Both the position numbers and the translations under genes were made by a program. Below are positions 12,635-61,117 of a stretch of 64,000 bases of DNA, piece after piece. The notes under the pieces are model-generated. The model made no database searches, was not told the DNA's origin, and saw only the letters and a program-made list of their open reading frames with translations. Position 1 is the first letter of the stretch, and each line of letters starts with the position of its first letter. Source of the stretch: Candidatus Pelagibacterales bacterium (GTDB taxonomy: Bacteria; Pseudomonadota; Alphaproteobacteria; Pelagibacterales; AG-422-B15). The stretch is taken from contig JAQWTH010000008.1 of the NCBI GenBank assembly GCA_029242795.1, positions 11,260 to 75,259 of the forward strand. The letters are read 5' to 3'.

Positions 12635-12655
12635 ACTTTAGAAAAGGGAAATAAC

Positions 12656-14430: not shown

Positions 14431-14434
14431 GTAT

Positions 14435-15808: not shown

Positions 15809-15822
15809 ATTAGATTGAAGTT

Positions 15823-29955: not shown

Positions 29956-30216
29956 ATGATGCAAGATAAGACTGATTTGTCAAAAAAGATTAAGGAACTT
30001 ACTGCTCTTCGTAAAAGTATATCGCTTGACCTTAAAGTCATTGCACAAAATACCAATATACCTACACAAATATTAAAAAATATAGAACTACACGATTTTA
30101 ATAAATTGCCGCCTCATCCAATTGGTGATTCTTTTATTAAGCAGTATTCTTTTGTAATTGAAAATGAGTCAAAGAAACCAAAACACCGAAGTTCGCAAAA
30201 ACTAGCCAATAGCTGA
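29956..30216 (+). CDS. Small helix-turn-helix protein (XRE/RodZ N-domain-like)
   Basis: ATG 29956 chosen over the TTG-extended ORF. MMQDKTDLSKKIKELTALRKSISLDLKVIAQNTNIPTQILKNIELHDF looks like an HTH_25/XRE fold. The 3' end overlaps the pilC 3' end by 15 nt. Confidence 0.45.
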   Translation: MMQDKTDLSKKIKELTALRKSISLDLKVIAQNTNIPTQILKNIELHDFNKLPPHPIGDSFIKQYSFVIENESKKPKHRSSQKLANS

Positions 30217-31470
30217 ACCAGCATTAAATATAGGAAGATACATTGCAATAAGTAGCACGCCTACAATTCCACCAATTATAACCATTGATAATGGCTCTAT
30301 CATTGTAGAAATATTTCCAACGACATTATCAAATTCTTCTTCATAATAATTAGCAATAGAAGTAAACATTTCTTCTAGATTACCAGTTCGTTCTCCAACT
30401 GCTATTAATTGAGAATAAGTATCTGGAAACATTTTCTCATTAGCACATAATTTTGACATGTCTTCTCCAGAAAAGACTCCTCGTTTTACTCTTTCTAATG
30501 CTTCAATATACAAAGTATTTGAAGTTGATGAAGTCGCAATATCCAAAATCTCCAATACATCAACACCTGCTGCAAATAAATTTGCTTTAATTAATGCAAT
30601 ACGAGAGATTGTTGACTGCGCTAGAACTGGACCAAATATTGGAAGCTTAAGGGAAATTCTATCGACAGATTTTTTAAATCCTGCTGAAGCGCCCATCATG
30701 AATCTAAATAGCATTATGAACCCAATGATTGAAAGTAAAGATATTAAGCCTCCCCATCCTTGAATAAACTCACTAGCTGCAATTATTGCTTTAGTGGGAC
30801 CTGGCAATTCAACACCCATACCACCATACATTTCCTCAAAAACAGGAACAACTTTCCAAAGTAAGAATACTGTTATGAGCAAAGCAATACACATGATGAT
30901 AACTGGATACATGAGAGCGCTTTTAATTTGCGATTTTAATTTCTGTCTTTTTTCCAATATCTCAACAAGCTTATCAAAAAAGATATCAAGTTTTCCTGAA
31001 GCTTCCCCAGCTTTAATCATATTAATATAAATATTATCGAAAACTTTTGGGTGTTTTGCAAAGCATTGTGAAAGCTCAAAGCCACCTCTAAGATCTTGAA
31101 CAATTCCACTGATAATTTTTTTCATGTTTTTATCAACTACTTGATTTTCAGTCATTTCTAATGAATCAATAATTGGCAATCCAGCCCTTATCATTGTTGC
31201 AATCTTTTTTGAGAAAAGCATTACTTCTTGAGGCTTGACTGATCCTCCACCGATAAATGGTATTTTTGATAACAGACTTTCACCGTCGTTATCCTTCTTC
31301 TTTTTTGCTTTATCACTAGCTGACTTTTTCTTTGATTTAGCCAAAGAAATAATGATTATCTTTTGTTCTCTTAATCTAAAGGCTGCTTCATCTTCATTTA
31401 TGGCTTCAATTACACCGTCGGTGTAAGTATTTTTTTCTCCAATAATTCCTTTATAATCGTAAGCAGGCAT
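30202..31470 (-). CDS. pilC: Type IV pilus platform protein PilC (GspF family)
   Basis: 422 aa. Duplicated GspF domains with 3 TM segments. Adjacent to pilB. Confidence 0.9.
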   Translation of the reverse strand: MPAYDYKGIIGEKNTYTDGVIEAINEDEAAFRLREQKIIIISLAKSKKKSASDKAKKKKDNDGESLLSKIPFIGGGSVKPQEVMLFSKKIATMIRAGLPIIDSLEMTENQVVDKNMKKIISGIVQDLRGGFELSQCFAKHPKVFDNIYINMIKAGEASGKLDIFFDKLVEILEKRQKLKSQIKSALMYPVIIMCIALLITVFLLWKVVPVFEEMYGGMGVELPGPTKAIIAASEFIQGWGGLISLLSIIGFIMLFRFMMGASAGFKKSVDRISLKLPIFGPVLAQSTISRIALIKANLFAAGVDVLEILDIATSSTSNTLYIEALERVKRGVFSGEDMSKLCANEKMFPDTYSQLIAVGERTGNLEEMFTSIANYYEEEFDNVVGNISTMIEPLSMVIIGGIVGVLLIAMYLPIFNAGSAIG

Positions 31471-31474: not shown

Positions 31475-33178
31475 TTATGAAATAAATAATGTTCTTTGGT
31501 ATTCTTCTAGCGATAAGACCCCATCGTTTATATATACAGCGCCTACTTCTTGCATTGATTGAAAGCCTTCTTTTTTTGCAACTTTTTCCATTTCGGGTAT
31601 TGTTAAATTCTTTAAGATTCCATCTTGTAAATCTTCTGTAATCTTTAAAATTTCATAAATACCTTGTCTTCCTTTATACCCAGAATTATTGCACTCACTG
31701 CAACCTTTTCCTACATAGGGCTTAAGATCTGGCGGTAGTTTCATTTGCTTAAGTAATTTAGCTGAGGCGTTTTTATCTTCAACTTTACATTTTTGACATA
31801 CTTTCCTCGCTAACCTCTGACCAATAACTAATGATACTGATGATGATATTAAATAATTTGGAATTCCCATATTTACTAAACGAGTAATTGTTTCCACTGA
31901 ACTGTTTGTATGGAGAGTACTGCAAACTAAGTGACCTGTTAATGCTGCTTCAACAGCAATATTTCCAGTCTCTTGATCTCTGATCTCCCCAACTAAGATT
32001 ACCTCAGGGTCTTGTCTAAGAAATGTTCTTAGTGCTTTAGCAAAAGTATAATTAATTTCACTTTTCATTTGTGATTGGCCAATCCCTTCAAGTTCATACT
32101 CAATTGGATCTTCAGCTGTTAGAATATTTCTCTTTGGATCGTTTAACTCACTTAAAATTGAATATAATGTCGTTGTTTTGCCACTACCAGTTGGTCCAGT
32201 CACAAGCACCAGTCCTTGAGTTGCATAAATAGCATCATTAATTTTTTCTAATTCATCAGGCTTAAATCCCATATCGGCAAGATCAAGTTTAATAGAATCT
32301 TTTCTTAAAAGTCTCATTACAACCCTTTCTTGTCCTCCTTGGACTGGAAGAAAGGAGACACGAAGATCGAATTCAATATTGTTGTGTGAGAAAGCTATTG
32401 CACCATCTTGAGGCATTCTTTTTTCCTCAATTCTTGCACCGGATAGGAGTTTTAGAATTGATACTGTAGCAAGATATCTTTGATTAATCTCATCTGCATA
32501 CTGATCTTGAACCTGTAAAACTCCATCAATTCTGAACCGTAATTGCTTTTTTGTTCTAAAAGACTCGATATGCATATCACTCACATTTCTTTTATATGCA
32601 TCAAGCAAAATAGATGTAACAAACTGTTCTGCTTCGGTTCGATCTCTTTCGGTAATTTCAACCTCTGGAGCAACTTCTTCTTTTTGTTTTCTTAATGATC
32701 CAAGAGCAACAACTTCACCACCTGCATCAGTTGCCATTCCAGCTTTTTCAAATAGTTTTTGAAGATTAGATTGGGTCACAAGAATCATGTCAATATTCAT
32801 GCCAGTCATTACTTTCAAATTCTTTTCATAAGAAAGTTTTGTCTGATCACAAATTGCAATAGAGAGTGTCGAGCCGATCACCTGAAATGGAAATATCATA
32901 TTACTTTCCATGTATTCAGGAGTTAGTTTTTTTACAGCTTCATCATTTATTCCTTCTGGATCAATTTCAGTTAATTGCAATCCATAACTTGAGGCAATAA
33001 AGCTCGCTAGTGATTGCTCATCCATCAGGTTTCTTTCAAATAGAATTGCCGACATGGGTTTACCAGTCTCATTACTATGAGCTATGGTATTATCTACATC
33101 TTTTTGAGATAATATTCCTTGTTGTGAAGCAATAGTAATGATCTCTCTTACGGCATCATTTGAAATTATATCTGACAT
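31475..33178 (-). CDS. pilB: Type IV pilus assembly ATPase PilB (GspE family)
   Basis: 567 aa. Walker A GPTGSGKTT, Asp box, His box (STLHTN) and tetracysteine motif CQKC...CSEC. Confidence 0.92.
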   Translation of the reverse strand: MSDIISNDAVREIITIASQQGILSQKDVDNTIAHSNETGKPMSAILFERNLMDEQSLASFIASSYGLQLTEIDPEGINDEAVKKLTPEYMESNMIFPFQVIGSTLSIAICDQTKLSYEKNLKVMTGMNIDMILVTQSNLQKLFEKAGMATDAGGEVVALGSLRKQKEEVAPEVEITERDRTEAEQFVTSILLDAYKRNVSDMHIESFRTKKQLRFRIDGVLQVQDQYADEINQRYLATVSILKLLSGARIEEKRMPQDGAIAFSHNNIEFDLRVSFLPVQGGQERVVMRLLRKDSIKLDLADMGFKPDELEKINDAIYATQGLVLVTGPTGSGKTTTLYSILSELNDPKRNILTAEDPIEYELEGIGQSQMKSEINYTFAKALRTFLRQDPEVILVGEIRDQETGNIAVEAALTGHLVCSTLHTNSSVETITRLVNMGIPNYLISSSVSLVIGQRLARKVCQKCKVEDKNASAKLLKQMKLPPDLKPYVGKGCSECNNSGYKGRQGIYEILKITEDLQDGILKNLTIPEMEKVAKKEGFQSMQEVGAVYINDGVLSLEEYQRTLFIS

Positions 33179-34765
33179 TTATAAAATTCTAGGTGCAATA
33201 AATATTAATAATCGATCAAGCTTATCATCTTTTGTGACACTCTTAAATAAGTTACCAAATACAGGAATATCACTAAGGATTGGTGTTCTCGATGAGCCTT
33301 TTGTAGAAGTTTGTTCATAAATACCACCAATCATTACAATTGTTTGATCTTCAACCAGCAGCCTTGTTGTAACTTTAGTGCTTGAAATAGGTGGGTTAGC
33401 CTGTGATGTATCAGCATTATCTTTATTAATATCAATATTTAAAATTATATTTCCATCTCCAACAATACTTGGTGTTACTTCAAGTTTAAGATCTGCATCT
33501 TTAAATTCTGTCTTAGTCTCACCATCTTCAGTTGTTGTAAATGGAATTTCCATACCTTGAGTAATTGTTGCAGTTTCATTATCTAGAGTGAAAATTTTAG
33601 GATTTGAAACAATCCTACTCAACCCAAGAGTTTCAAGGGCTTGAAGCTCAACTAAAAGATTAAGGTTATTGGATCTTAGTAACATTCCAAGTGAACCAGT
33701 CATTGCACTTATTGGGTTATTAGATAAGCCTCCATCTTGCAATGGAACTGTCCATAGTTTTGTTTCTTCGTCATAAACGGGTGTTCCTAAAGAAAGTGAT
33801 TTAGTAGAATCACCAGTTATATTATTCATTGATTGGCCGATTCTTGTGCCAAAAGCTTTATCAAAGTCAGAGCCTACTTCAACAACAAATGCTTCAATCA
33901 AGATTTGTTGTGTTGGAACATCTATTTGATTAATTAGCTTTTCTATGAAATTAAGATCATCGGCTCCACCGAGCACAATCAGAGAGCCTAGTCTAGCATC
34001 AACAGTCATTTTTACTCTATCAGCAGTACCTCCGGAAGATTCTCCTTCATCTCCTTCACCAGCTGAGGCAGTAGAGTCCATATTTTTCAGGATATCTTCA
34101 ATCTGAGCCTTAACTACCGTAGGATTACTATAGAAAAGTTTGAATATCTCAGATCTCACAGGCGCAATAGACTTGTTTAAATCCATTGCTTTTCTAATTT
34201 CAGCCTTACGTTTTAAGTTATATGCTTCTTGAGCAGTTAAAACATCTTTTGAATGTATACGAACAATATTTGTTTTTGGATTTAATGTTAATGCGATATT
34301 TTTAATTTCTAGAATAGCTTCTAGGACGTCATCCCAATCTTCATTTACAATTCTTGCTTTAACATTGCCTTTAACTTCATCCCCAACAAGTATATTTTTA
34401 CCTGTAATAACAGAGAATGTTTGCATTACCTCTCTGATTTCAACGTTTTCAAAATTTACTGAAATAGGAAATGTCTGGGTGAAATTTTTATCAATAATTT
34501 TTGTATAATCAGTCATTATACTTTCATCGATAAAGATTCTTCTATCAGGTCTTAACGCCGTGTCTGTTTTTGTATTTGGTTTTGGGCCAAGTTTTACACT
34601 TTCCTCAATAACAGGCTGATTTTCTTTTGCAAACTCAGTTGGCTTGAAATCTTCTTTAACTTCACTATCCAACATCATGTATTCAGCACAAGATAAAAGT
34701 AATAATGGAGTTAGAATTGCAGCAACAATACTAAATTTTCTCATGAATATTTGCACAGTATTCAT
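33179..34765 (-). CDS. pilQ: Type IV pilus secretin PilQ (possible lipoprotein)
   Basis: 528 aa. The C-terminal secretin domain (…VPVFGNLF… LLIFIAPRIL) is preceded by N0/N1-like domains. The N-terminus LTPLLLLSC looks like a lipobox. An alternative start is at 34744. Confidence 0.88.
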   Translation of the reverse strand: MNTVQIFMRKFSIVAAILTPLLLLSCAEYMMLDSEVKEDFKPTEFAKENQPVIEESVKLGPKPNTKTDTALRPDRRIFIDESIMTDYTKIIDKNFTQTFPISVNFENVEIREVMQTFSVITGKNILVGDEVKGNVKARIVNEDWDDVLEAILEIKNIALTLNPKTNIVRIHSKDVLTAQEAYNLKRKAEIRKAMDLNKSIAPVRSEIFKLFYSNPTVVKAQIEDILKNMDSTASAGEGDEGESSGGTADRVKMTVDARLGSLIVLGGADDLNFIEKLINQIDVPTQQILIEAFVVEVGSDFDKAFGTRIGQSMNNITGDSTKSLSLGTPVYDEETKLWTVPLQDGGLSNNPISAMTGSLGMLLRSNNLNLLVELQALETLGLSRIVSNPKIFTLDNETATITQGMEIPFTTTEDGETKTEFKDADLKLEVTPSIVGDGNIILNIDINKDNADTSQANPPISSTKVTTRLLVEDQTIVMIGGIYEQTSTKGSSRTPILSDIPVFGNLFKSVTKDDKLDRLLIFIAPRIL

Positions 34766-34769: not shown

Positions 34770-35186
34770 CTATTGCATATCCGATCCAGTTATAGTTTGA
34801 ACAGGATTAAATACCTGCTTTTCAACTTCATCTGCACCTTCTTTTTCAAAAGTCACCCCATCGATAGAAATTGATTTTAAATTATGTTCATCATTCCCTA
34901 TCGGATCTCCTACATATAAGAAATAATCATCACCTCCTGGGAAACTAACAATAGCTAATGATCCTTTTGAAGATGTCACAACTCCTTTAACAAAATATTG
35001 ATCAAGACTTAGGCGAAGCATAGGATGTACGCTATTATCACCAGCTGCAGGCGATGCAGACATTGATGTTTGATCACCACTGGATTGCTTTGTGAAACTT
35101 CTTGAGAATGGATCAACATCAGCAAAAGAAAAGCTTGAAGAAAGAAGGCCTAATATTAATGCTAGATATATTATATTTTTTTTCAT
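34770..35186 (-). CDS. pilP: PilP-like periplasmic pilus assembly protein
   Basis: 138 aa with a signal peptide (MKKNIIYLALILGLLSSSFSFA). Position between pilO and pilQ. The C-terminal beta-rich domain is like PilP. Call rests on position and size. Confidence 0.55.
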   Translation of the reverse strand: MKKNIIYLALILGLLSSSFSFADVDPFSRSFTKQSSGDQTSMSASPAAGDNSVHPMLRLSLDQYFVKGVVTSSKGSLAIVSFPGGDDYFLYVGDPIGNDEHNLKSISIDGVTFEKEGADEVEKQVFNPVQTITGSDMQ

Positions 35187-35187: not shown

Positions 35188-36063
35188 TTAATCAGCCGCC
35201 TTAACTAGTGATACTGTTGCAGCGGCAACAATTTGACCCGGAGTTTCATCTGTATCTATTTTCTCAGACTCAATATTAACGATTTTGTTTTTATTAGCTA
35301 TTACATTTCTAAACTTAAGGTAGTTAGTAAAAGAGCCAGTAATTTCAAAATTAACCATTAATTTATAATATGCTATAGGTCCACCTTCAGCATTTGGATC
35401 TTCAAAATTCATCTCACCCATGTCCATACCCATGTCCATACCCATGTCCATACCCATGTCCATGGCAAACATATCCATGCCATCATCACATCTAACGGCA
35501 AACATATCACCATCAGCCGGCATCATATTAGGGTCCATATTTGGATCCATCATCGGATCCATCATAGGATCCATCATAGGATCCATCATCATCATATCAT
35601 CTCCAGCCCCAGACTTTTGTCTAACAGGAACTTCTTCCGCTCTAGTTATATCTTTTATCGTTAATCGATATAAAACTGATGCTTCCGTTAAGTCTGCATA
35701 GAAAGCTTCAAACTCATCATCAGTTACAAACAATCCACTTTTTGATTTTTTTTGATCATTTAATTCTGACACCTCTTGTTTCAGGTTTTCAATTTCATCA
35801 TTACAACTAATTAATTGTTGATTCCATTTATCAATCTCAACAATTTTATCTTCTTGTTTATTTAGTGATGGATTTATGAATATGAAATACCCACCAAATA
35901 CAAAAATGATCAGCCCACCTGTGATACTTGCACGCCGAACAAGTTTTGCATCGTTAAATAGTGATTTACCAATTGCGCCTTTTTTTTCTTCCCCAGGCGC
36001 ACCAGGAGCGTCAGACTTCTTTTTAAATAAGTTTGCAGTATCTATGCCAAATATCTTTGCCAT
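35188..36063 (-). CDS. pilO: PilO-like bitopic pilus alignment protein with Met/Asp/Pro-rich repeat insertion
   Basis: 291 aa. A cytoplasmic N-terminus is followed by one TM segment (GGLIIFVFGGYFIFI), a coiled coil and a C-terminal domain. Position between pilMN and pilP. Confidence 0.6.
   Translation of the reverse strand: MAKIFGIDTANLFKKKSDAPGAPGEEKKGAIGKSLFNDAKLVRRASITGGLIIFVFGGYFIFINPSLNKQEDKIVEIDKWNQQLISCNDEIENLKQEVSELNDQKKSKSGLFVTDDEFEAFYADLTEASVLYRLTIKDITRAEEVPVRQKSGAGDDMMMMDPMMDPMMDPMMDPNMDPNMMPADGDMFAVRCDDGMDMFAMDMGMDMGMDMGMDMGEMNFEDPNAEGGPIAYYKLMVNFEITGSFTNYLKFRNVIANKNKIVNIESEKIDTDETPGQIVAAATVSLVKAAD
35417..35595 (-). repeat. Two in-frame 12-nt tandem repeat arrays inside pilO
   Basis: CCCATGTCCATA occurs 3 times perfectly plus a partial fourth copy (35417-35464, encoding MDMG repeats). 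GGATCCATCATN occurs 4 times (35543-35590, encoding MMDP repeats, each unit carrying GGATCC). Confidence 0.85.
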
Positions 36064-37842
36064 CTATTCTTCAACCTCCTCATTTACTTCTACAAGTTGA
36101 GAGTTTATCAACTCTGATTTAATTATTAATTTTACAACAAACTTTTTAATTGTTGATCCTTCTTGAGCTAGTGATGATTTTTCTAGTACCACATTTTCAA
36201 ATAATTCTGTTCCTTTAACACGAGTAATATATTTTATAACATCTGCATCAGACAAAGCCTCTCCCTTGACTTCATATTTTTCCTGTCCGTTAAAATCAAG
36301 ATTTGTTAGCACAATATTAAATCCCGCCTGATAAGCGATCTCACGTAATACTTTTGCAGCTATGTTTTGATTTGTTGTTGCTGTTTCAGATAACATTAAT
36401 TGTTCGTTAATTTTATCTTTTTCACTTATCAATGCTGAATACTGACCTTGAAGTTGTTCAATTTCCATTTTAAGCATATCGTAGTCTGATAACGCTTCTT
36501 GGTTAGAAGAAGATTGAAAATAGTATGAAGAAAAAGCATATATACCAAAGACAATCACAGCTATAGAAATTCCGATTGCAAAAATTCCAGAAATAAACTT
36601 GTTTTTTATTGAGCTTTTAACCCCTTCACGGTTTGGAAGAAGGTTGATATTTTTAACGCCAGTAACCTTTTGATAATACCCAAAAATATCAAGTTTTCGA
36701 GTAGCAAGGCCGGTCACAGCAGCAAATGATGAATTATTTTCCTCAGCATCGATCTTACTTTGAACGTTAGCTGGAATTTGCATCTTTGAAAAAGGATTGA
36801 AATTAACAACTGTTAGATCAGTTAATTTTTCTGATAAAACTTTATTAATCATTTCACTATTTGGAGTGTCGGTAACAATGAAAATTGAGTCAACCTTGTC
36901 AGACTTAAATCGATTTTGGTAAGCGGTTAAGTTTTGCCTAATTTGTAAAATGTATCGATCAATAATTGGAGCTAATGCAAGAGTATCACTTTGTTTTACG
37001 CCAAGCACAGCTTTATCCGCATTACTCAAAAATAAATCACTAACAAATGGATCATCTCCTTTTAGCACCAGTAAATAATTTTCATGAGATCCAATTTCTA
37101 AAATTGCCATTGGCTTTTGAGCGATGTTTGGCAACGCCATAGTTTCAAATGCGTTTCGAAGTGCAAAGCATTTAACATCAAGAACCACAGGTTGTAATCC
37201 CGCTTGTGTTACAATGTCTATGTACGCATTAACATCACTTAATTTTGATGCAACAAAAAGAACATCCATCATGTTTGATGTGGAGTCTTTTCTAATTACT
37301 TGATGAAAAATCGAATACTCATCAATTGTACCAGGCAATTGGGTTAAGTTTTCCCAGAGAGAATTAAATTCAATAGCATTTTTCATCTCAAGGTCGCTCA
37401 TGAGAGGCATCGCAATAACTTTTACAATTGAGCTTGATACAGGAAGAGATACAGCCGCATTAGTTGTAGTAAATTTGCCTGACTCTAAAGCTATTTTGAT
37501 TGCTTCTACAAATGGCCCTTGACTTACTTTGATGTCTTCTACGCGATCAACATGTCGAGCAGTTAATTTTTCAACAATCCATTCTTCTTTTTCAGTTTGA
37601 GTTAATTGAAGTAATCGAATACCGCTAGGACCTATATCCACTCCGACAACTTCTTCTTGCTGAACAGAATATTTACTAAGTGAGTCAATGATACCTGTGC
37701 TAAGTTTTGCGATTAATTTTCCAAAAAAAGACTTCTTTTCGTTTGTGCCACCAACACCTGTTGGAGATGCAGAAGAAGAACTTCCTTTTTTACTGAAGAT
37801 CGATCCAAGCGAGCTGAAGATATTTGTTATACTTTTGAACAT
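36064..37842 (-). CDS. pilM: Fused PilM-PilN pilus alignment protein
   Basis: 592 aa. An actin-like PilM region (VGVDIGPSGIRLLQL...) is followed by a TM segment (FISGIFAIGISIAVIVFGIYAF), a coiled coil and a PilN-like periplasmic domain in one ORF. Confidence 0.75.
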   Translation of the reverse strand: MFKSITNIFSSLGSIFSKKGSSSSASPTGVGGTNEKKSFFGKLIAKLSTGIIDSLSKYSVQQEEVVGVDIGPSGIRLLQLTQTEKEEWIVEKLTARHVDRVEDIKVSQGPFVEAIKIALESGKFTTTNAAVSLPVSSSIVKVIAMPLMSDLEMKNAIEFNSLWENLTQLPGTIDEYSIFHQVIRKDSTSNMMDVLFVASKLSDVNAYIDIVTQAGLQPVVLDVKCFALRNAFETMALPNIAQKPMAILEIGSHENYLLVLKGDDPFVSDLFLSNADKAVLGVKQSDTLALAPIIDRYILQIRQNLTAYQNRFKSDKVDSIFIVTDTPNSEMINKVLSEKLTDLTVVNFNPFSKMQIPANVQSKIDAEENNSSFAAVTGLATRKLDIFGYYQKVTGVKNINLLPNREGVKSSIKNKFISGIFAIGISIAVIVFGIYAFSSYYFQSSSNQEALSDYDMLKMEIEQLQGQYSALISEKDKINEQLMLSETATTNQNIAAKVLREIAYQAGFNIVLTNLDFNGQEKYEVKGEALSDADVIKYITRVKGTELFENVVLEKSSLAQEGSTIKKFVVKLIIKSELINSQLVEVNEEVEE

Positions 37843-38015: not shown

Positions 38016-39023
38016 ATGGACGATATTATTACAAAAAGTGCTGAAATTAGCGGTTTATCAGACATTCACATACAGTCAGGACTACCTCTTGCTTTACGTA
38101 TAAATGGGTCGATCCAGAGAGATTCAACGCAAGTTATTTCAGCAAAAGATATCGACGACTTTCTTAAAGACAAGTTGAGTAAGGAGCATCAAGAGAAGTT
38201 AAAGGTTAAAAAAGGTCTAGACCTTGCAATGGTCATTGGTTCAACCAGATTCAGAATTAATATTTATTCTGCTTACAACGGAATGAATATTGTTATGAGA
38301 AAAATTGAAACAAAGATACCAGATTTTTATCAAATGGGTTTTCCTCCAGTTGTAGAGAGTAAACTGAGTACATTAAACGGATTGATACTTGTTACTGGTC
38401 CAACTGGATCAGGTAAGTCAACGAGTCTTGCCGCAATGATTGATTATGTAAATACGAATAAGGATGTAAATATTATTACGGTTGAAGATCCAATTGAGTT
38501 TGTTCATGAGCCTAAAAATTCAATTATTACGCAAAGAGAGTTGGGAGCTAATACGCCTACATTTACAGATGCGCTCCGAGAAAGTTTAAGAGAAGATCCG
38601 GATGTAATTTTAGTTGGAGAGCTGCGTGATCAAGAAACAATTTCTCTTGCCTTAACAGCCGCTGAAACAGGTCACTTAGTTTTTGGAACTTTACATACTA
38701 GTGGTGCGCCTAACACTATTCATAGAATTATAGATGCGTTTCCTCCAGGGCAACAAGATCAAATCCGAGCACAGATTGCAACATCGTTAAAGATGGTCAT
38801 TACACAACGTTTGATGAAAAGGGCTGATGGAACAGGAAGAGTAGCTGCATTTGAAATTCTTGTAAGCAACAATGCTGTTCAAAACTTAATCCGTGAAAAT
38901 AAAATTTTCCAACTTCCAAGTACTATGCAAACAGGAGTGTCTGACGGAATGGTTCAAATGGAAAAATCGATTGAAGAGCTCTTAACCTCAGGGGTAATTA
39001 ATCATGATGGAATTGGACACTAA
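38016..39023 (+). CDS. pilT: Twitching motility retraction ATPase PilT
   Basis: 335 aa. Walker A GPTGSGKST, EDPIEF, LVGELRD, GTLHT and the AIRNLIRE-like motif AVQNLIRENK. Confidence 0.9.
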   Translation: MDDIITKSAEISGLSDIHIQSGLPLALRINGSIQRDSTQVISAKDIDDFLKDKLSKEHQEKLKVKKGLDLAMVIGSTRFRINIYSAYNGMNIVMRKIETKIPDFYQMGFPPVVESKLSTLNGLILVTGPTGSGKSTSLAAMIDYVNTNKDVNIITVEDPIEFVHEPKNSIITQRELGANTPTFTDALRESLREDPDVILVGELRDQETISLALTAAETGHLVFGTLHTSGAPNTIHRIIDAFPPGQQDQIRAQIATSLKMVITQRLMKRADGTGRVAAFEILVSNNAVQNLIRENKIFQLPSTMQTGVSDGMVQMEKSIEELLTSGVINHDGIGH

Positions 39024-39573
39024 ACGAAAAAACGGTTTCTCACTTTTAGAAGTAATTGTGACTGTCGCCATTCTTGGCTTAGTTGCTTTATTTGCAGTTC
39101 CAAATTTAGCTGGGTGGACATCATCACGAACAGCGGAAAATGATGTCGCAAAAATAAGAGGTCTTATTGATTATGCTAAAGTAAGGAGCCAGAACATTGG
39201 CTTTCCAATAATCTTAGAGCAATCAGGCAATCGAATAATGGTTATGAACATTGATAGCCTTAATTCTTCTTTTTGTAACATAGGCAGCGGATCAACTGGT
39301 AGACCTAGAATGACTGATCCAGAGTACCCTGTAGCATTAGAGTTTGAAGCATCCGTTCGAACAAAACATGATCCATCTGGAAATTCACAGTCAACAACCT
39401 ACAGATACTCGAGTAGTAGAATTTGTTTTAATCCAGATGGAACATCAAAAGGCGGTGGATTTGAAGTTACACGTGATGCTGATACAAGATTTAGAGTCGA
39501 TATTGGGCCAACAAGTTTTTATGATGTTACTCGATATTCACCTCAACAACGAACATGGATAGAGTGGAATTAA
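39004..39573 (+). CDS. Minor pilin, FimT/FimU (GspH)-like
   Basis: Prepilin N-terminus KRKNG/FSLLEVIVTVAILGLVAL. 189 aa. First gene of the minor pilin operon. Confidence 0.7.
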   Translation: MMELDTKRKNGFSLLEVIVTVAILGLVALFAVPNLAGWTSSRTAENDVAKIRGLIDYAKVRSQNIGFPIILEQSGNRIMVMNIDSLNSSFCNIGSGSTGRPRMTDPEYPVALEFEASVRTKHDPSGNSQSTTYRYSSSRICFNPDGTSKGGGFEVTRDADTRFRVDIGPTSFYDVTRYSPQQRTWIEWN

Positions 39574-40013
39574 TGAATAAAAATCAACAGGGTATAGCAC
39601 TGATAGAGGCATTGGTTGCCGCAGTCATAGTTGGCATAGGCTTTGTTGCTGTCTACGGATTAGCGTCCACATCAACACGGGTTTTGATGAGTTCCATTGA
39701 TCGTGAAAAACAAAATATGTTAGCCAATATGATCTATGAAGACTTGCTTACGGATACAGTCAACATAGATAAGTATCATAATATGGACTTTAAATCAGGA
39801 TCATCTGGTAGTGGTACTCATGATAAGAAAAGGGCTAAATGGTTCGCTAAAGCAAATAAAAGGTTAGGCAGTGTACTCCCAAGTGATAAGAGAAAAATTG
39901 AAGTTGTGAAAAAAACCAAAAGCGGAAAAGATTATTATGTTGTTACTATTCGCATGGCATCCCGTGATGGTAAAGCAAGTAATCATTTTAAAAGAGTAAT
40001 AAATGCACCATAA
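39573..40013 (+). CDS. pilV: Minor pilin, PilV-like
   Basis: Start set at ATG 39573 (TAATG overlap with the upstream gene). MNKNQQG/IALIEALVAAVIVGIG has a class III signal with Glu at +5. Confidence 0.65.
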   Translation: MNKNQQGIALIEALVAAVIVGIGFVAVYGLASTSTRVLMSSIDREKQNMLANMIYEDLLTDTVNIDKYHNMDFKSGSSGSGTHDKKRAKWFAKANKRLGSVLPSDKRKIEVVKKTKSGKDYYVVTIRMASRDGKASNHFKRVINAP

Positions 40014-41382
40014 TCAAGAAGGATTCACATTACCTGAAATATTAATTGGTCTTGCCATAAGCTCGATCATTATTGCAGCATCCTTTGCATCTTACATTGT
40101 AATTAAAAATAATTACGACTTTCAAAAAGACATGAAAAATATTTCTCAAACATCAAGAGCCGTTGCAACAATGATTATGCGCGATGTTCGTATGGCAGGG
40201 TATAATTATGACGATGGACCATCGAAGCAGAAACCAACAATTGCTACAGGTATAAAGATTACTGACGGCAGAACAACAGATCCTGACTCAATTGAGATAA
40301 TATATGATAAATCTTATACTGAAAGATTAAAAATTTCTTACTACACGAAAAAGTACAATAATAGATTGAGACTTTATAAAAAAGTCGAAAAGTGTAATGC
40401 AATGAATTGTGCTGCAAGTTCTTTACAAACGGTAATAGCAGAGTCGCCAATAGCAGATTACGTTGAAGATCTTCAGTTCACTGGTTTTAAGAATGGAGAT
40501 GCACTTGGAACTGGTTCTGTTGCTTATGGACAGGGAAACATGAGGGCAATTGTGCCAGTAAAGGTTACAACTAACTGCAGCAATAACAATGGAGCCAATA
40601 AATCAATTGATGGATCAACAACTATTTCCACATTTTATCAATGCAATGACAATAAAACGTATTCTTGGTTAAAATTTGATTTTGATAAGCAAGTGCGAAT
40701 AACCAAAATTTTTATTGAGACAGCTGCTGGAGTTGATGGTGGAAGTTTAGGAGCTCAAATGGTTAGGCCGTTCGATAATGCAACTTATCCCTATGGAGTA
40801 AATCAATACATTCAGTCTGGCTTTCAATTCATGATAGGGCCAAATTATTATGTCAATAAAAGACCAAAATGTGCATCTGAACAAGGGCCAACGAGCTGTG
40901 CAAATTATAATTCAGGTTCAGGTGGGATTGGACAAGATAAACATTTTGATGCCATTTGTGTTGGCGTCTCAGGAATAGTTGATGCTGGTAGTAAATCAGC
41001 TTCTGGAGGATGTACATCAAACAACGTGCAATTCAATATTCTTAGAGAATGGGCGGTAGATCAGTTTAGAGTTCAATTGGGAAATGATAATTTTAAATGT
41101 TCTTATACTCAATCTGGACAGAAATGTAACCCGATTCATCGTATGGGAAGTTATCCTCATTACTTAGGAGAAATAAGATTTTATGGAGAAGTTTTTGGTG
41201 AACCTCAGAATCCTCAAGAAGTAGAAATTGGACTTTTAATTAGGAGTGCAGATGAACATGGTAACACTCCAATACAGAAAACGTATAATATTGGAAACAG
41301 AAGCATTGTTACAAATGATAATTATATAAGAGATAGTTATTCAATATCTGCACTTATAAGGAATAGTTACTATGGAATATAG
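40003..41382 (+). CDS. pilW: Minor pilin, PilW-like, with large inserted discoidin-like domain
   Basis: MHHNQEG/FTLPEILIGLAISSIIIAASF is followed by a PilW-like head (RAVATMIMRDVRMAGY). 459 aa, larger than typical. Confidence 0.65.
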   Translation: MHHNQEGFTLPEILIGLAISSIIIAASFASYIVIKNNYDFQKDMKNISQTSRAVATMIMRDVRMAGYNYDDGPSKQKPTIATGIKITDGRTTDPDSIEIIYDKSYTERLKISYYTKKYNNRLRLYKKVEKCNAMNCAASSLQTVIAESPIADYVEDLQFTGFKNGDALGTGSVAYGQGNMRAIVPVKVTTNCSNNNGANKSIDGSTTISTFYQCNDNKTYSWLKFDFDKQVRITKIFIETAAGVDGGSLGAQMVRPFDNATYPYGVNQYIQSGFQFMIGPNYYVNKRPKCASEQGPTSCANYNSGSGGIGQDKHFDAICVGVSGIVDAGSKSASGGCTSNNVQFNILREWAVDQFRVQLGNDNFKCSYTQSGQKCNPIHRMGSYPHYLGEIRFYGEVFGEPQNPQEVEIGLLIRSADEHGNTPIQKTYNIGNRSIVTNDNYIRDSYSISALIRNSYYGI

Positions 41383-41962
41383 TAAATCAAACCAAAGAGG
41401 ATTTGCTCTTATCTTATCAATGGTGATGCTCTTGGCGATGACATTGATGGGATCTGTATTATTAATGAATGCTTCATCTCAAAGTAAAGTCACTGGTAAG
41501 AGTGAAAGCAGTAGGCAAACGTTCTTATCTGCAGAAACAGGAGTGGAAGCTGCTCGTCGTTGGTTATCAATTGAAGCAGCGACTGGAACATTACCAAAGA
41601 ATGGAAGCTCTTCAGTTGGAACTTTATGCAAATTTCAACTTGATGATACCTATAAAGTCGCAGGAGATGATGGAACTAGTGGTAGAGGTATAAAGATGAC
41701 AAGTGAATTAGGTGTTACAAATACAAATGAAAAGCTCATTTATGATAATCAATCATTTACGTGGTTTACGACAGAGCACACCACAACCAATTATAAGGGT
41801 ACTGGAATTGGTGGCGGAATTGGTGGTGGAACTGGATATGTAGGAGGAGGAGGCAATATGACAAGCTATTTATATAAAGTCTTTGCTTGTGGAAAAGGCC
41901 CAGGTTCTTCGAATGCCTATACGAGGACATTAATTGAGGCTATAGTAGGGATTAACAAGTAA
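41372..41962 (+). CDS. pilX: Minor pilin, PilX-like
   Basis: NQRGFALILSMVMLLAMTLMGS...SAETGVEAARRWL matches PilX N-terminal domain logic. Gly-rich C-terminal stretch GTGIGGGIGGGTGYVGGGG. Confidence 0.6.
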   Translation: MEYSKSNQRGFALILSMVMLLAMTLMGSVLLMNASSQSKVTGKSESSRQTFLSAETGVEAARRWLSIEAATGTLPKNGSSSVGTLCKFQLDDTYKVAGDDGTSGRGIKMTSELGVTNTNEKLIYDNQSFTWFTTEHTTTNYKGTGIGGGIGGGTGYVGGGGNMTSYLYKVFACGKGPGSSNAYTRTLIEAIVGINK

Positions 41963-42465
41963 TGAGTAAGCACTTAAAAATTTATGTTTCTTCAATTGTG
42001 CTGTTTTTTATAGCAAATACAGCAGCACACGCTTTGTGTGATTTTGAAAAAGTATTAATCGGTTCATCTTTAAATTCATTTCAAAATAAATTTGTAGGAG
42101 ATGCTGGAACGAATAGCAGCAAACTACATGGATATGATATTCCTATAGAACGTATTTGTGATGATTTCGAACAGGCAATTGTGAAGTATAATTTTATCGA
42201 TAAAGATTTACATCAAATAATTATCAGAGATTACAAAAATGATGCCGACTATTTAAAAAGTCTAAAATATTATTACGGTGACCCAACAGAAGGATATGGT
42301 CGAGCTGGAACAAGTGGTCTTGCTTACTATTACTGGGATAAAAGTGAAAAATCTGTTTTTCTTATCGATAAAATTTTTGGAGATTCTAGAGAGCAGGTGG
42401 TTGAAATAGTCTCTGATCGCTTCAATGAACTATCATTAAAATACATGGATATGGACAATGAGTAG
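41962..42465 (+). CDS. Secreted hypothetical protein within the minor-pilin operon
   Basis: 167 aa with a signal peptide (IVLFFIANTAAHA). Overlaps pilX by 1 nt and pilY1 by 8 nt. Confidence 0.5.
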   Translation: MSKHLKIYVSSIVLFFIANTAAHALCDFEKVLIGSSLNSFQNKFVGDAGTNSSKLHGYDIPIERICDDFEQAIVKYNFIDKDLHQIIIRDYKNDADYLKSLKYYYGDPTEGYGRAGTSGLAYYYWDKSEKSVFLIDKIFGDSREQVVEIVSDRFNELSLKYMDMDNE

Positions 42466-45400
42466 ATTTTTAACATTCATAGCTATTCTGTCTTTATCTC
42501 TAAGCATTTCTTCTAGTAACGTTCTTGCAAAGAGTGCGCCTCCAGGAACAGGAAAGTCAGATGTTAAGGCTAACATACTTATTATGTTGGATCGATCTGG
42601 GAGTATGGGCTGGACGGCTCCAAGTACAGCACCAGTTAATAATCCTCATGACGTTGTTATGGACTCGAATAATGCGCATTGGGCAACAGAATATAACAGA
42701 AGTTATCTCAAAAAATATAATGCTGGCGGAAAATTATTGAAAGAAATTCGTGGAGGTGGTGGTTCTGGTCAGCAACAGTTTCGTTATCCTGGTAAAGTAG
42801 CTGTAGACAGTGGTGATAATGTTTATTTTATAGATACAGGGAATAAAAGAATCTTGTCCTATGACTCATCTGGTAATTGGAGATGCACAAGTTCGACATT
42901 TCCAAATAATTCAACTCACATTTATGCTGATCTTGAAGTAACTCCAAGCGACTCAATAGTAGTTAATCAATCGGGCGTCACATACATCTATGATACCGGG
43001 TGTTCGCTAAAATCAACTATTACCCCAGACCCAAATTATTATAATTCTGTTGGCCCTCATGCCATTGATCAAAACAATAAAAGTTATTATTTCGATAATA
43101 ACACAAAAGTTCTGACACGATTTAACAATGCATCAAATTACTTCATGCAGGTTGAAAAAACTGAAGCAAACTTAACTCATAAAAGTTCACTTGGTTCTCC
43201 ATATGACATAGAAGTTGATGGCGCAAATCGTCTTTATATTTTAAGTAGCACTAATCATAAAATTTATGTTTATAACGCAACTACATTTGCGCATCTTTGT
43301 ACTATAGGTGATGGATATGGAAGTCGATCTGACCAAGGTCAATTGCGAAATGCTAAGGGTTTTGGAGTGCAGGGTGACAAAGTTTTTGTTGGTGACACTG
43401 ATAATAGTCGAATTGTAAAATTTCAAATGACGCTTTGTACCGGAGGGGCAAGCCTTACAGGAAATGCATCATTCGATGGCCTGTATGGAAAGTCGGAGAA
43501 ACGAATTGCAATTGCGCGACGTGTTTTGAAGAAACTTGTCTCTGATACATCATTAACAACTGGAGCAAATTTTGGTCTTCAAGAGTGGGGATCAAGTGCT
43601 AGAATTAGAATTCCAATTACAAAAAATGGCGCAGCCCAAATTTATACTGACTTAGATCGTTTTCCTACCGGCGGTGGAACTTACCTAGATCGAGGTATGG
43701 ATAATGCAAGATCTTATTGGACTGGATCACAATCACCAATTAGCCCTAAAGCAAACTGTCAGCAGAACTATAATATTGTTTTCAGTGATGGACAGTGGTG
43801 GGGAACTTCTAATATTGCAACGGCTACATGGTTACGTACTAACAAGGGGGTAAAAACATTTGCACTTGGATATGCTGGATATGGAAACACAAGAAATTAT
43901 CAAAATCTTGCAACAGCTGGTGGAACTAAGACCCCATTATTTGCTGATGATGAAGATCAATTACTGCAGCAGTTGACATACGCAATTAAACAAGTTCTTC
44001 AATCGCGTCTAACATTTACAGCCCCTGTAATTATGCCTGATATGACTTCTGGAGATTCAATCTATCAAGCAGTGTTTAATTATAAAAAAGATCATCAATG
44101 GCAAGGAAGACTTCTTAGATATAAATTAAAAGCTGACGGAACAGTTGGAGCTAAACAATGGGATTCAGGAGAAAAATTAGAAGCGAGAGCAGCAGATACA
44201 AGAAATATTTGGACAGTGAGCGCAAATCTTCCTGCTGGATTAAATAATTTTGTTGCCGCAAATCAAAGCGTTTTAAGATCTGAGTTATATTTAGGAGGAA
44301 CAATGGGTACGGTTGCTGATGCGACTAATTTGATAAATTTCACTAGAGGCATTGATACTTATGATGAAGACTTAGATGGTTCCACAACTGATGAACGTTG
44401 GAAACTTGCGGATATTTACAATTCAAATCCTACACTTGTAAATAATCCTTCATCTGGAATGGATACAGCTGATAAAAATTCAGATGATTTTTATAGAAGT
44501 CAAAATGGCTATAAAGCCTTTAAGGATCGCTGGAAAGCGCGAGCTACAACTATTTTAGCTGGCTCTAACGGGGGAATGCTGCATGCATTTAGTAATGCAG
44601 ATGGTTCTGAAAAATGGGCATTCATACCACCTTCTCTTATACCTAAACTTAGAGGTGTCAGTTCAGGTAAAGCAAATAAAACAAATTCTATATACGGTGT
44701 CGATGGATCCCCTGTTGTGAAAGATATTTATCATAATGGTGCATGGAAAACAGTCGTCGTTTTTGGGATGGGTGAGGGCGAACATTCCTACTCAGCACTA
44801 GATATAACAAATATTGATGCTCCAAAACATATGTGGACTTTTAAAAATGATCCATCAACTCAGACCGTAACGTACTGGAATGCAGCAGGAAACAAAACTG
44901 AAGAAGCCTATGCATCAATCTCACCATCTCGAGATTATTCTAAATTAGGACAAGCGGTTTCAACTCCAAGAATTATTCGAATTCAAAGTGGAGGAGTGGA
45001 TAAATGGGTAGCAATATTTGGAGCAGGTGGAAACGGTGGTGCTGCAACTGCATACGGATCTGCTGTGTATTTAATTGATATTGCAGATGGTGGCAGAGTA
45101 TTGAAGAAAATAGATGTTGCTGACAAAGCTGGAAATAAAGTTGTTAATTCAGTTATCGCATCAGTGGTTCCAGTTACACCTGATACAACATCAACTGCAA
45201 ATTATAAAGGCGCATTAGTATACTTTGCAGACTTTGAGTCAAAGTTATGGAAACTTAATTTAACAAATAAAGGGACCATGTATCAACTTCAACAGCTATT
45301 TGATGGCGAAGCAACAGAAAATAATGGACGAAGAGTTTTCCATGATGTGACTTTATCGCTTGATGACAATAGTGATCTTTGGGCGTTTTTCGGAACAGGT

Positions 45401-47096: not shown

Positions 47097-47117
47097 AGTA
47101 CTATCGAGTTAATGTAA

Positions 47118-59446: not shown

Positions 59447-61117
<1,671 letters not shown>

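Follow-up and report, generated by a model that had tools for sequence, protein, structure and literature searches.

A methionine- and aspartate-rich, repeat-encoded loop in the pilus alignment protein PilO of one SAR11 sublineage

PilO within a type IVa pilus cluster

In type IVa pili, PilO (PF04350; P. aeruginosa 2RJZ/5UVR, M. xanthus 3JC8 chain O) is encoded in a pilM-N-O-P-Q operon and is composed of an N-terminal membrane anchor, a coiled coil and two alpha-beta-beta motifs. The PilO described here shares both the operon position and these elements. Known PilO also pairs with PilN as a heterodimer and is a binding partner of PilP. Unlike known PilO, it has a conserved cytoplasmic head of 46 residues and a conserved cysteine pair linking stalk and loop positions, its cluster encodes PilM and PilN as one fused protein, and its beta1beta2-beta3 hairpin is an 80-residue Met/Asp segment predicted to be disordered. 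In the literature, where matches to "pilo" are crowded by "pilot", no paper was found that links PilO, SAR11 pili and methionine-rich segments. The DNA analyzed, a stretch of 64 kb referred to here as the window, contains the following genes:

35188-36063, reverse strand: pilO, an ORF of 291 aa; predicted to be a bitopic protein of the inner membrane, belonging to the alignment subcomplex of type IVa pili
36064-37842, reverse strand: pilM-pilN fusion, 592 aa, directly upstream of pilO, its stop abutting the pilO start; Pfam PilM_2 (3.2e-30) and PilN (8.5e-7)
34770-35186, reverse strand: pilP-like gene, 138 aa; Pfam T2SSC and PilP, both below threshold; position conserved
33179-34765, reverse strand: pilQ, secretin; Pfam Secretin (9.5e-43)
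31475-33178, reverse strand: pilB, ATPase; Pfam T2SSE (2.3e-118)
30202-31470, reverse strand: pilC, platform protein; NCBIfam GspF/PilC (7e-90)
38016-47681, both strands: rest of the pilus cluster, with pilT, four minor-pilin genes and a 1157-aa VWA/NHL tip-protein candidate on the forward strand, and a prepilin peptidase and two pilins on the reverse strand
59447-61105: GroEL, ending in a GGM tail of about 13 residues

No rRNA genes are present in the 64-kb window. The gene order pilMN-pilO-pilP-pilQ-pilB-pilC (assigned with Pfam and NCBIfam) is kept in 11 related loci, and the pilM-pilN fusion is conserved in relatives. The ATG of pilO abuts the stop of pilMN and is preceded, ∼12 nt upstream, by AGGAGG; a single nucleotide separates the pilO stop from the pilP start. 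As a single protein, the window PilO scored 19.0 bits with the Pfam PilO model (PF04350; gathering score 22), and an NCBIfam search with it returned no match. PF04350 was matched by 34 of 41 PilO family members (best E 7.5e-14), the family profile matched PilO in the PDB (E 6.9e-7), and Foldseek ranked PilO 3jc8_Oa first (E 1.8e-5) and 2rjz_A second (E 1.3e-3, target-normalized TM 0.64), with 5uvr also among the matches. The gene product, which a sequence-only reading had called PilO-like, is thus PilO, and its type IVa pilus cluster, from a SAR11 (Pelagibacterales) genome, is complete. The first round of a whole-protein homology search found only four relatives (38-40% identity) and no close ones; the latter were recovered from DNA collections. 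Met-type pilO alleles are under-represented in protein databases because short-read assemblies and gene calls are interrupted at the repeat. Fragments of pilO also occur in marine metatranscriptome contigs, with partial cover and at low depth; carry-over of DNA is possible.

Composition and placement of the loop

Within pilO, the following features are considered:

35866-35925, reverse strand: transmembrane segment, aa 47-66 (ITGGLIIFVFGGYFIFINPS), with KLVRRAS just before it; a hydrophobic stretch within the AF2 helix 33-108
35803-35805, reverse strand: codon of Cys87, located in the coiled-coil stalk; does not vary within the SAR11-type subfamily; would pair with Cys192 in a proposed disulfide
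35410-35601, reverse strand: Met/Asp-rich block, aa 155-218, with 25 Met and 16 Asp in 64 residues, inside the predicted disordered hairpin loop aa 152-222
35518-35601, reverse strand: array A, DD-MM-(MMDP)x4-NMDP-NMMP, 12-nt unit NATGATGGATCC; the final two units (NMDP, NMMP) are degenerate
35488-35490, reverse strand: codon of Cys192, in the conserved non-repeat center of the loop; an invariant column that takes part in the cysteine parity described below
35416-35463, reverse strand: array B, (MDMG)x4, 12-nt unit ATGGACATGGGT in four perfect copies

The AF2 model, which was obtained from a shallow MSA (mean pLDDT 59.6; core 70-89), consists of a helix (33-108), an alpha element (115-131), strands 135-141/145-148, a strand (230-243), a second alpha element (245-256) and strands 263-271/278-289. 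This layout agrees with the alpha1-beta1beta2-beta3 / alpha2-beta4beta5-beta6 order of PilO 5UVR, from which the strand names are taken, and matches the bitopic PilO architecture of a short cytoplasmic head, one transmembrane helix, a periplasmic coiled coil and two alpha-beta-beta motifs. By the established topology of the PilO family, everything downstream of the transmembrane segment would be periplasmic. The block lies between strand beta1beta2 (aa 135-148) and beta3 (aa 230-243) of the first alpha-beta-beta motif, in a gap (aa 152-222) where pLDDT drops to about 30 between confidently modeled flanking strands. Its earlier assignment to the periplasmic part is borne out by the model, in which the segment is predicted to be both disordered and periplasmic.

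The count of 25 methionines in 64 residues, also made earlier, was confirmed for residues 155-218 (window positions 35410-35601), whereas the remaining 227 residues of PilO contain just two. At the Met frequency of the window (2.7% over 44 long ORFs), the binomial probability of at least 25 Met in 64 residues is about 9e-23. The block has a net charge of about −19 with a single basic residue, contains one Arg and no His, and has Pro or Gly at every fourth residue. Tandem Repeats Finder recovered both of the 12-nt arrays previously noted, array A at 35543-35589 (period 12, 3.9 copies, 97% match) and array B at 35416-35463 (period 12, 4.0 copies, 100% match); what had been read as three copies plus a partial one is array B in another phase. 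Between the arrays lies the conserved non-repeat center of the loop, DMFAVRCDDGMDMFA.

A six-frame scan of the 64 kb found two other Met-dense stretches, namely, the antisense image of the block and the GGM tail of GroEL. The antisense ORF at 35420-35701 mirrors the repeats and was therefore discounted as a gene, and general compositional drift was rejected as well, the GroEL tail being the sole Met-dense stretch besides the block and its image. Occurrence of the segment in unrelated proteins, which would have spoken for such drift, was observed neither in the six-frame scan of the window nor in a collection of 5.8 billion proteins. The block alone matched a single entry of this collection, a fragment of the same PilO, beside 150 word-sharing candidates; against the PDB, the sole match, to the DPNANP repeats of circumsporozoite protein (E 1.8), is attributed to chance, and neither the block nor the 128-residue loop of L019, the deepest Met-rich relative, matched anything in Pfam. 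In these block searches, the composition filter of HMMER could mask weak low-complexity matches.

Lineage, slippage and selection

Across the PilO family, the hairpin loop in the first alpha-beta-beta motif is a hot spot of low-complexity sequence, ranging from 4 to 132 aa and being poly-Lys, Asn/Gln-, Pro/Ala- or Asp/Glu-rich in other members; that of the window has 80 residues, with about 31% Met and 25% Asp/Glu. In all SAR11-type PilO the loop is long, of low complexity and under purifying selection. The segment had been regarded as an insertion. It was not inserted into a loop-free PilO, but lineage-specific re-composition and expansion of a loop already long in the SAR11 type did take place, and the units DPNM and FDNNM are already present in the Met-poor relatives L007, L025 and L028. 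Met-rich loops (65-128 residues, 29-44% Met, built of Met/Asp/Pro/Gly segments) were found in 15 PilO sequences (40-97% identity) from SAR11 genomes and marine metagenomes, and in one of 152 family representatives at 50% clustering. In a tree of core columns only, these sequences form one clade (bootstrap 93/100 with L019, 100/100 without it). Among the sequences compared, the Met-rich loop is thus confined to one monophyletic SAR11 sublineage, in which it took the place of an Asn/Ser/Asp-rich loop and of one Cys pair. Although the cores of this clade are only 52% identical, loop Met stays at 29-44% throughout, with five types of unit (MMDP, MMMDP, NMMDP, GMDP and MMMGDP/MDMG). The G+C content of Met-clade loci is 32-35%, compared with 25-33% for other loci.

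The cysteines of the family come in numbers of 0, 2 or 4, and Cys87 occurs only alongside loop Cys. It is present in 33 members, whose loops hold one or three Cys (two or four in total), and absent from 59 members without loop Cys and from five others with one. The Met clade has exactly two Cys, other SAR11 forms four. This parity suggests a disulfide between Cys87 and Cys192.

The segment arises and changes length through in-frame slippage of its 12-nt units (15 nt in relatives), which also homogenizes the codons of each array. Between sequences 96-99% identical in the core, the copy number ranges from three to six for MMDP and from three to five for MDMG, always in frame, as had been expected of strains from the unit length. 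Synonymous codons are homogenized inside each array in a strain-specific manner: array B reads GAC-ATG-GGT four times in the window, GAT-ATG-GGC three times in L001 and GAT-ATG-GGA five times in L002. Metagenome contigs contained a +6-nt variant (in array B) and a +3-nt variant, both in frame. Logan contigs are short unitigs and show presence and a few indel variants, not copy-number distributions; raw reads of one 2026 run contributed two reads only. Disruption of the ORF in close relatives, which would have counted against function, was not seen: none of the 15 related sequences and contig variants carries a frameshift or stop. In unit lengths that are multiples of three, strain-variable copy number, concerted evolution of units, and breakage of short-read assemblies and gene calls, the block resembles in-frame coding minisatellites (VNTRs) of bacterial envelope proteins. 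It differs from these in its strong purifying selection, its lack of surface exposure and its extreme bias toward a single residue.

Within the block, 12-16 synonymous differences stand against 0-4 non-synonymous ones (S about 31, N about 190). Compared with the window sequence, relatives gave an omega of 0.00-0.05 in the block and 0.03-0.05 in the rest of the gene. All 25 ATG codons were unchanged (25/25) where about 11 would be expected neutrally; against L012, 20 of 24 were retained (expected, 1.4). Retention exceeded the neutral expectation in the non-repeat center too, although slippage-driven homogenization and alignment bias in repeats could have aided it. Purifying selection hence keeps the methionines and the amino acid sequence of the segment. 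Because copy changes are in frame, ATG codons are kept beyond neutral expectation and dN/dS is ≤0.05, the segment is very probably a selected, slippage-resized loop of PilO. The homologous loop of Met-poor lineages is under purifying selection as well (omega 0.03-0.09), and the basic role of the loop therefore needs no methionine.

Possible roles of the methionines and their bearing on SAR11 pili

In oxidizing compartments, methionine is the usual ligand of Cu(I) (CusF, CusB, CopC, CopK, Ctr1). The block, predicted to be periplasmic and disordered, contains ten MxM, six MxxM and three MxMxxM motifs in 64 residues, and the Met-only MxMxxM motif of human Ctr1 has been described as Cu(I)/Ag(I)-selective (PMC9117721). 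Like the Mets motifs of Ctr1, the block presents Met-only clusters in an extracytoplasmic, disordered, acidic segment with no need for Cys. Ctr1 contains His clusters as well and delivers to a pore, whereas the block has no attached transporter or chaperone; its Met density is far higher, and the two are not homologous. With bacterial periplasmic copper proteins (the Met-rich helix of CueO, the MDH repeats of CopA/PcoA, PcoE/SilE, CusF/CusB, CopK), the block shares the compartment and repeated Met with Asp/Gly spacers, and its MDMG recalls the "MDH..M" repeats of CopA/PcoA. Most bacterial periplasmic Met-rich copper segments contain His (CueO, CopA/PcoA, PcoE/SilE). The block, unlike CueO/CopA/PcoA-type inserts, has neither His nor a cupredoxin or OB fold nor a sequence match to them, and its locus, unlike those of such proteins, has no cop, pco or cus neighbors within the window. 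Among the annotated genes of the 64 kb there is no cop, cus, cue, sco, pco or msr gene, and searches of Pfam, the PDB and the 5.8 billion proteins connected the block to no known copper protein, by either homology or domain context. The resemblance to Cu(I)/Ag(I) methionine motifs proposed in the sequence-only reading therefore holds for composition (MxM/MxxM/MxMxxM); a sequence relation to CopA, PcoA, CueO or Ctr, and His, are lacking.

Cu(I) binding by these Met-only motifs is our best chemical guess, if a tentative one. In the mechanism proposed here, Cys192 at the loop center would be stapled by the putative disulfide to Cys87 of the coiled-coil stalk, which would leave two acidic, thioether-rich lobes per subunit, halfway up the PilN/PilO cage that surrounds the base of the pilus; both a 12-fold ring and the lobe orientation are presumed, AF2 placing the loop without confidence. 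The lobes may then act as cation-binding tentacles, their MxM/MxxM/MxMxxM clusters, flanked by Asp, taking up a soft monovalent metal, Cu(I) above all, and would buffer copper or pass it on beside a machine that depends on periplasmic disulfides. The Met-poor loops, Asp/Asn-rich and with one more Cys pair, would be a hard-cation or disulfide version of the same loop. That the loop peptide binds Cu(I)/Ag(I) in vitro has an even or slightly better chance. Such binding alone would not show that copper handling is selected, because Met-rich peptides bind Cu(I)/Ag(I) generically, and it seems rather doubtful to us that selection maintains the loop for copper handling. With a low copy number (the Myxococcus model 3jc8 has about 12 PilO per machine), PilO would offer little capacity for bulk buffering. 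The open ocean contains extremely little free copper, and Mets motifs of micromolar affinity would therefore stay unoccupied unless affinities of nanomolar or tighter were reached by multidentate sites. Taken as a whole, this copper mechanism is possible but should be viewed with reserve.

A less probable function is that of a soft hydrophobic contact or gasket, in which flexible Met, spaced by Asp, Pro and Gly, would form a pliable, weakly cohesive lining of the PilN/PilO cage without any role for metal, facing pilin N-terminal helices as they leave the membrane, PilP, PilN or the growing fiber. The GGM tails that line the GroEL cavity and the methionine-rich M domain of SRP54 are analogues. 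Such a role is consistent with selection on the loop in all SAR11 lineages whatever its composition. PilO and PilP evolve fastest within the cluster (68-70% identity vs 89-91% for PilB, PilC and PilT), a pattern compatible with contacts that co-evolve. Flexible interaction surfaces made of Met-rich domains are known (PMC8076862), unstructured loops serve a function in P. aeruginosa PilO (PMC5805733), and GroEL, a ring machine with a Met-rich flexible tail, is encoded in the same window. The GGM tail and the block are both Met/Gly-rich, disordered, repeat-built segments carried by each ring subunit; the former is cytoplasmic, neutral, terminal and short, the latter internal, strongly acidic, periplasmic and five times longer. 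However, a charge of about −19 with one basic residue is unusual for a surface binding hydrophobic helices, and the regular spacing of Pro or Gly excludes amphipathic helices.

Alternatively, selection may want only a long, acidic, flexible spacer of about this length, the methionines coming from an ATG-rich expanding unit (GAT-CCN-AAT-ATG / ATG-GAT) that slippage regenerates. The diverse composition and length (4 to 132 residues) of the same loop elsewhere in the family, the DPNM and FDNNM units of the Met-poor L007, L025 and L028, and the visible homogenization within arrays are all in line with this explanation. It is nonetheless unlikely, given that 29-44% Met is held across a clade with 52% core identity and five unit types, that ATG retention, the non-repeat center included, is far above neutral, and that omega is ≤0.05. 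Assimilatory sulfate reduction is missing from cultured SAR11, which rely on reduced sulfur (PMC5069961), though the lineage of the window may differ in this respect; where relatives must import reduced sulfur, 25 Met are costly, and a streamlined genome would therefore be expected to lose them if they were unnecessary.

The exposed thioethers might also be oxidized to sulfoxide by H2O2 or photochemical oxidants of surface water and reset by a periplasmic methionine sulfoxide reductase, as a buffer that spares the disulfides and pilins of the machine or as a switch by which hydrophobic lobes turn polar and alter pilus assembly. The relatives come from single-cell genomes and metagenomes of the sunlit surface ocean, the Met clade has lost one loop Cys pair, and Met oxidation is known to alter hydrophobicity and protein function and to be repaired by Msr systems (PMC8076862). 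Such a buffer or switch is nevertheless distinctly unlikely: no msr gene is among the annotated genes of the 64-kb window, and with so few copies of PilO, bulk scavenging would be negligible. Moreover, nanomolar H2O2 oxidizes Met slowly. Further reaching, and quite improbable, is the idea that a PilO ring with two disulfide-pinned Met/Asp lobes on each subunit forms a Cu(I)- or oxidation-tunable mesh about the pilus base, by which copper or redox state would gate pilus assembly and pilus use, for example, DNA uptake; we know of no metal- or redox-sensing alignment subcomplex in any type IV pilus or type II secretion system.

It is very improbable that the run of ATG codons (25 in 64, including four in a row) gauges methionine supply in the middle of a translationally coupled operon, scarce Met-tRNA causing stalling, so that a sulfur-starved cell would cease to produce PilO and, downstream, PilP, PilQ, PilB and PilC. 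The pilMN/pilO and pilO/pilP junctions are tight (stop and following start contiguous or 1 nt apart), and SAR11 depend on reduced sulfur (PMC5069961), but Asp, Pro and Gly positions are as strictly conserved as Met among close relatives, which points to the protein and not the codons. To our knowledge, attenuation by Met codons inside a structural gene is without precedent. Finally, a contingency locus, in which repeat number switches the gene on and off or varies an exposed epitope against phage or grazers, can practically be dismissed even though copy number differs between strains, since units of 12 or 15 nt leave all variants in frame (+3, +6, ±12 nt), the segment is predicted to be periplasmic and not surface-exposed, and selection is purifying rather than diversifying; phase variation was accordingly rejected, units being in frame in all 15 related sequences and the contig variants.

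Among heterotrophs of the surface ocean, SAR11 is the most abundant; what its type IV pili do has been described as unclear (PMC12789548). The loop is a clade-specific, selected and chemically extreme feature at the core of the SAR11 pilus machine, found in organisms with cultured relatives that have to take up all of their reduced sulfur from outside (PMC5069961). Copper binding or oxidation sensing by the loop would tie the function of the pili to trace-metal or redox conditions. We know of no earlier example of a metal-binding PilO, and that of the window would be the first if copper is indeed its ligand. If neither metal nor redox chemistry is involved, the loop would be a clean natural coding minisatellite, unstable in length yet under strong purifying selection.

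Gene cluster and identity of PilO

The ORF that the sequence-only reading had proposed as a PilO-like gene is real. Its ATG comes immediately after the stop codon of the preceding ORF, AGGAGG lies ~12 nt upstream of the ATG, and the next ORF starts one base past its own stop. The surrounding genes make up a complete type IVa pilus cluster:

36064-37842, minus strand: pilM-pilN fusion
35188-36063, minus strand: pilO, 291 codons
35803-35805: codon of Cys87, coiled-coil stalk
35410-35601, minus strand: Met block, residues 155-218 of PilO (composition count)
35543-35589: array A, period 12, 3.9 copies at 97%, NATGATGGATCC = MMDP (Tandem Repeats Finder)
35488-35490: codon of Cys192, loop centre
35416-35463: array B, period 12, 4.0 perfect copies, coding strand ATGGACATGGGT = MDMG (Tandem Repeats Finder)
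34770-35186, minus strand: pilP-like gene
Minus strand, same-strand neighbours of pilO: secretin pilQ, ATPase pilB, platform pilC
Plus strand: pilT, four minor-pilin genes, 1157-aa VWA/NHL protein
Past the plus-strand pilus genes: prepilin peptidase and two pilins

The pilM-pilN fusion is a single ORF of 592 aa whose N-terminus is extended by a Ser/Gly-rich stretch of ~60 residues; it is kept in all related SAR11 loci. The order pilT / pilMN-O-P-Q-B-C was identical in every locus long enough to show it, and PilO and PilP evolve fastest in the cluster (68-70% identity in the related locus L004, versus 89-91% for PilB, PilC and PilT). The 1157-aa protein (42458-45931, plus strand; VWA and NHL-repeat matches), encoded next after the minor pilins, is a candidate PilY1/PilC-like tip protein. 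The MAG LRMED-209 carries two full pilT/pilMN-O-P-Q-B-C clusters on different contigs, L001 and L004 (PilO 96% and 68% identical to that of the window); either two populations were binned together or one genome carries both clusters. Elsewhere, the genes at 11069-17762 (plus strand; glutamine-synthetase-like, GATase and glutamate-synthase-domain genes, then an ammonium transporter) look like a methylamine (gamma-glutamylmethylamide / N-methylglutamate) utilisation cluster.

The protein is PilO by synteny, architecture, fold and family-level sequence; gene cluster, profile matches and Foldseek matches agree with the earlier assignment. The window protein alone scored only 19 bits on Pfam PilO, below the cut-off of 22. 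PF04350 was matched by 34 of 41 homologues, and a profile of these 41 matched M. xanthus PilO in the PDB (E 6.9e-7). The best Foldseek matches of the AlphaFold2 model were the PilO chains 3jc8_Oa and 2rjz. The model has a long helix (33-108) comprising the membrane anchor (47-66) and a coiled coil, followed by alpha 115-131, a broken strand (135-141/145-148), strand 230-243, alpha 245-256 and strands 263-271/278-289, with pLDDT near 30 at residues 152-222. This layout is that described for P. aeruginosa PilO (alpha1-beta1beta2-beta3 / alpha2-beta4beta5-beta6; PMC5805733); thus, the Met block fills the hairpin loop that joins beta1beta2 to beta3 in the first alpha-beta-beta motif, on the periplasmic side.

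The methionine loop, its repeats and its distribution

The block of 25 Met in 64 residues and its 12-nt arrays were confirmed, the copy numbers of the sequence-only reading describing the same arrays in another phase. The block also holds 16 Asp and is strongly acidic (20 Asp/Glu, one Arg), whereas the other 227 residues of PilO contain 2 Met. Long ORFs of the window contain 2.7% Met; at that frequency, a 64-residue stretch would hold 25 or more Met with a binomial probability of ~1e-22. The MMDP copies of array A are followed by two degenerate units, NMDP and NMMP. A six-frame scan of the window found Met-dense stretches only in this block, in its antisense image and in the tail of GroEL (Cpn60; 59447-61105, minus strand), an ordinary GGM tail. 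The antisense image is an ORF that an ORF finder would list (35420-35701, plus strand, 93 aa, MSIPMSIPMSIP...GSIIGSIIGSII); it mirrors both repeat arrays and is almost certainly no gene.

Scans of genome and metagenome contigs gave 36 related loci. The nearest of them (96-97% identity) lie in marine metagenomes and in single-cell and metagenome-assembled genomes whose labels read Pelagibacterales or Pelagibacteraceae (SAR11); all public runs holding the sequence are marine or seawater metagenomes, and the window has 34% G+C. Across the 98 family members compared, loop length here varies from 4 to 132 residues, and the sequence is nearly always of low complexity (poly-Lys, Asn/Gln-, Pro/Ala-, Asp/Glu-rich or Met); the beta1beta2-beta3 loop (equivalent of window residues 150-229) is a general low-complexity hot spot of these 98 sequences. 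In most SAR11-type homologues it has 44-67 Asn/Ser/Gln/Asp-rich residues and three Cys. Met-rich loops (29-44% Met in every case) occurred only in the window group, L012 (81% identity), L013 (77%), the L004/L014/L030 group (68-75%; repeat unit MMMDP, 15 nt) and L019 (40%), whose 128-residue loop has 40 Met and includes MMMDP, GMDP, MMDP and MMMGDP arrays. In a neighbour-joining tree of core columns, loop left out, these sequences form one clade (bootstrap 93/100 with L019, 100/100 without it). Across 152 family representatives (50% clustering), one, an L019-like fragment, was Met-rich. Since the loop is variable family-wide and Met-rich in one clade only, the earlier suggestion of an insertion new to PilO does not hold; the Met loop arose when one lineage changed the composition of a variable loop that was already there. 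The Met-poor relatives L007, L025 and L028 already contain DPNM and FDNNM units, a plausible seed of the arrays.

Cysteine counts in family members are 0, 2 or 4, a parity that suggests one or two periplasmic disulfides. Cys87 occurs only alongside loop Cys. Cys87 and Cys192 are the sole cysteines of the Met clade, which has lost the extra CxnC pair located immediately ahead of the AYYK strand in other SAR11 forms; no Cys is present in the PilN portion of the PilMN fusion. A Cys87-Cys192 disulfide would pin the loop centre to the stalk, and the pinned loop would form two lobes, one of MMDP and one of MDMG units.

Strain-to-strain length polymorphism, as the sequence-only reading had expected, was found among sequences 96-99% identical in the core, with 3-6 MMDP and 3-5 MDMG-type copies.

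Repeat copy numbers in PilO of the window and of closely related loci
Locus; MMDP; MDMG-type; length
L003; 3; 4 (one MDIG); 286 aa
Window; 4; 4; 291 aa
L001, L009; 5; 4; 295 aa
L010; 6; 4; 295 aa
L011; 5; 5 (last MNMG); 299 aa
L002; 5; 5 (last MNMG); partial

L012 and L013 have three full MDMG units and a half unit, the array of L006 is shortened and irregular (~3 units), and metagenome contigs hold +6-nt and +3-nt variants. All length variants keep the reading frame, and pilO is free of stops and frameshifts in every relative. Within a strain, the MDMG units share the same synonymous codons, which change from strain to strain (window, GAC-ATG-GGT x4; L001, GAT-ATG-GGC x3; L002, GAT-ATG-GGA x5), the pattern left by continuing slippage or turnover of units. 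In SAG AG-914-G18, the assembly breaks within the repeat (L005/L006; one contig stops at aa 147, the other resumes at aa 194), and the public gene calls P0008 and P0153 are truncated or restarted there; Met-loop alleles are thus under-represented in protein databases. A search of 5.8 billion proteins returned no full-length close relative. In the marine metagenome runs X1 and X2, word depth over the MMDP array (35532-35603) was ~10-20x that of the flanks (X1, ~130-140 versus 5.6-8.8), and metatranscriptome contigs carry other MDMG-like repeats (loose ends in X28 near 35416), so the repeat words are common to many variants or other loci in the community.

Selection on the loop and its possible function

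Between the window and close relatives, the block has 12-16 synonymous differences (~31 sites) and 0-4 non-synonymous ones (~190 sites); omega is 0.00-0.05 there and 0.03-0.05 elsewhere in the gene. Each of the nine possible single-base changes of ATG alters the amino acid; 25 of 25 ATG codons were unchanged, versus a neutral expectation of ~11 (synonymous p ~0.24, rest of gene). ATG was kept at 20/24 positions versus L012, 16/19 versus L013 and 19/21 versus L004 (expected, 1-2), counts to be read knowing that homogenisation makes synonymous differences non-independent, alignment within repeats favours Met-Met columns and slippage can regenerate ATG. The non-repeat centre of the loop is conserved too, and Met content is maintained throughout the clade even though its cores share only 52% identity. 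Despite the caveats, these substitution patterns demonstrably place the Met block under selection. Loop omega in Met-poor lineages is 0.03-0.09, and purifying selection acts on the loop in several SAR11 lineages; the loop itself therefore has a function in SAR11 PilO, and that of the Met clade is one variant of it. Marine metatranscriptome contigs hold pieces that match the gene exactly or nearly so, among them one of 227 nt over array B and part of array A, a hint that pilO is expressed.

Every PilO subunit carries a selected, strongly acidic, thioether-dense periplasmic segment that is predicted to be disordered. Such a segment would bind cations, with Cu(I) the best-fitting ligand; copper handling as its selected function leads the explanations, tentatively. 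In oxidising compartments, Cu(I) is usually bound by methionine. The block is dense in MxM, MxxM and MxMxxM, the last as in the Met-only motif of Ctr1 described as Cu(I)/Ag(I)-selective (PMC9117721). However, it has no His, PilO copy number is low, and neither a copper nor an Msr gene lies in the 64-kb window. Searches of the PDB, Pfam and 5.8 billion proteins gave no homology to a copper protein; the likeness to copper-protein families is one of composition, and the block belongs to none of them. Free copper is also very low in the open ocean, and the loop is under selection in lineages without Met. Somewhat less probable than copper handling, a soft-hydrophobic contact surface or gasket may be proposed by analogy with GroEL GGM tails or SRP54. 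On a par with the gasket, the loop may be an acidic spacer that is Met-rich only because the expanding unit happened to be so; against this stands its high cost in sulfur, since cultured SAR11 cannot reduce sulfate (PMC5069961), a physiology that may not be this lineage's. An oxidation buffer or switch is unlikely, a translational gauge based on Met codons very improbable, and phase variation was rejected, every repeat variant being in frame.

No earlier description of a Met-rich PilO, or of this feature in SAR11, came up in the literature search. The Met loop is notable as an extreme, clade-specific and, by its substitution record, selected form of PilO.
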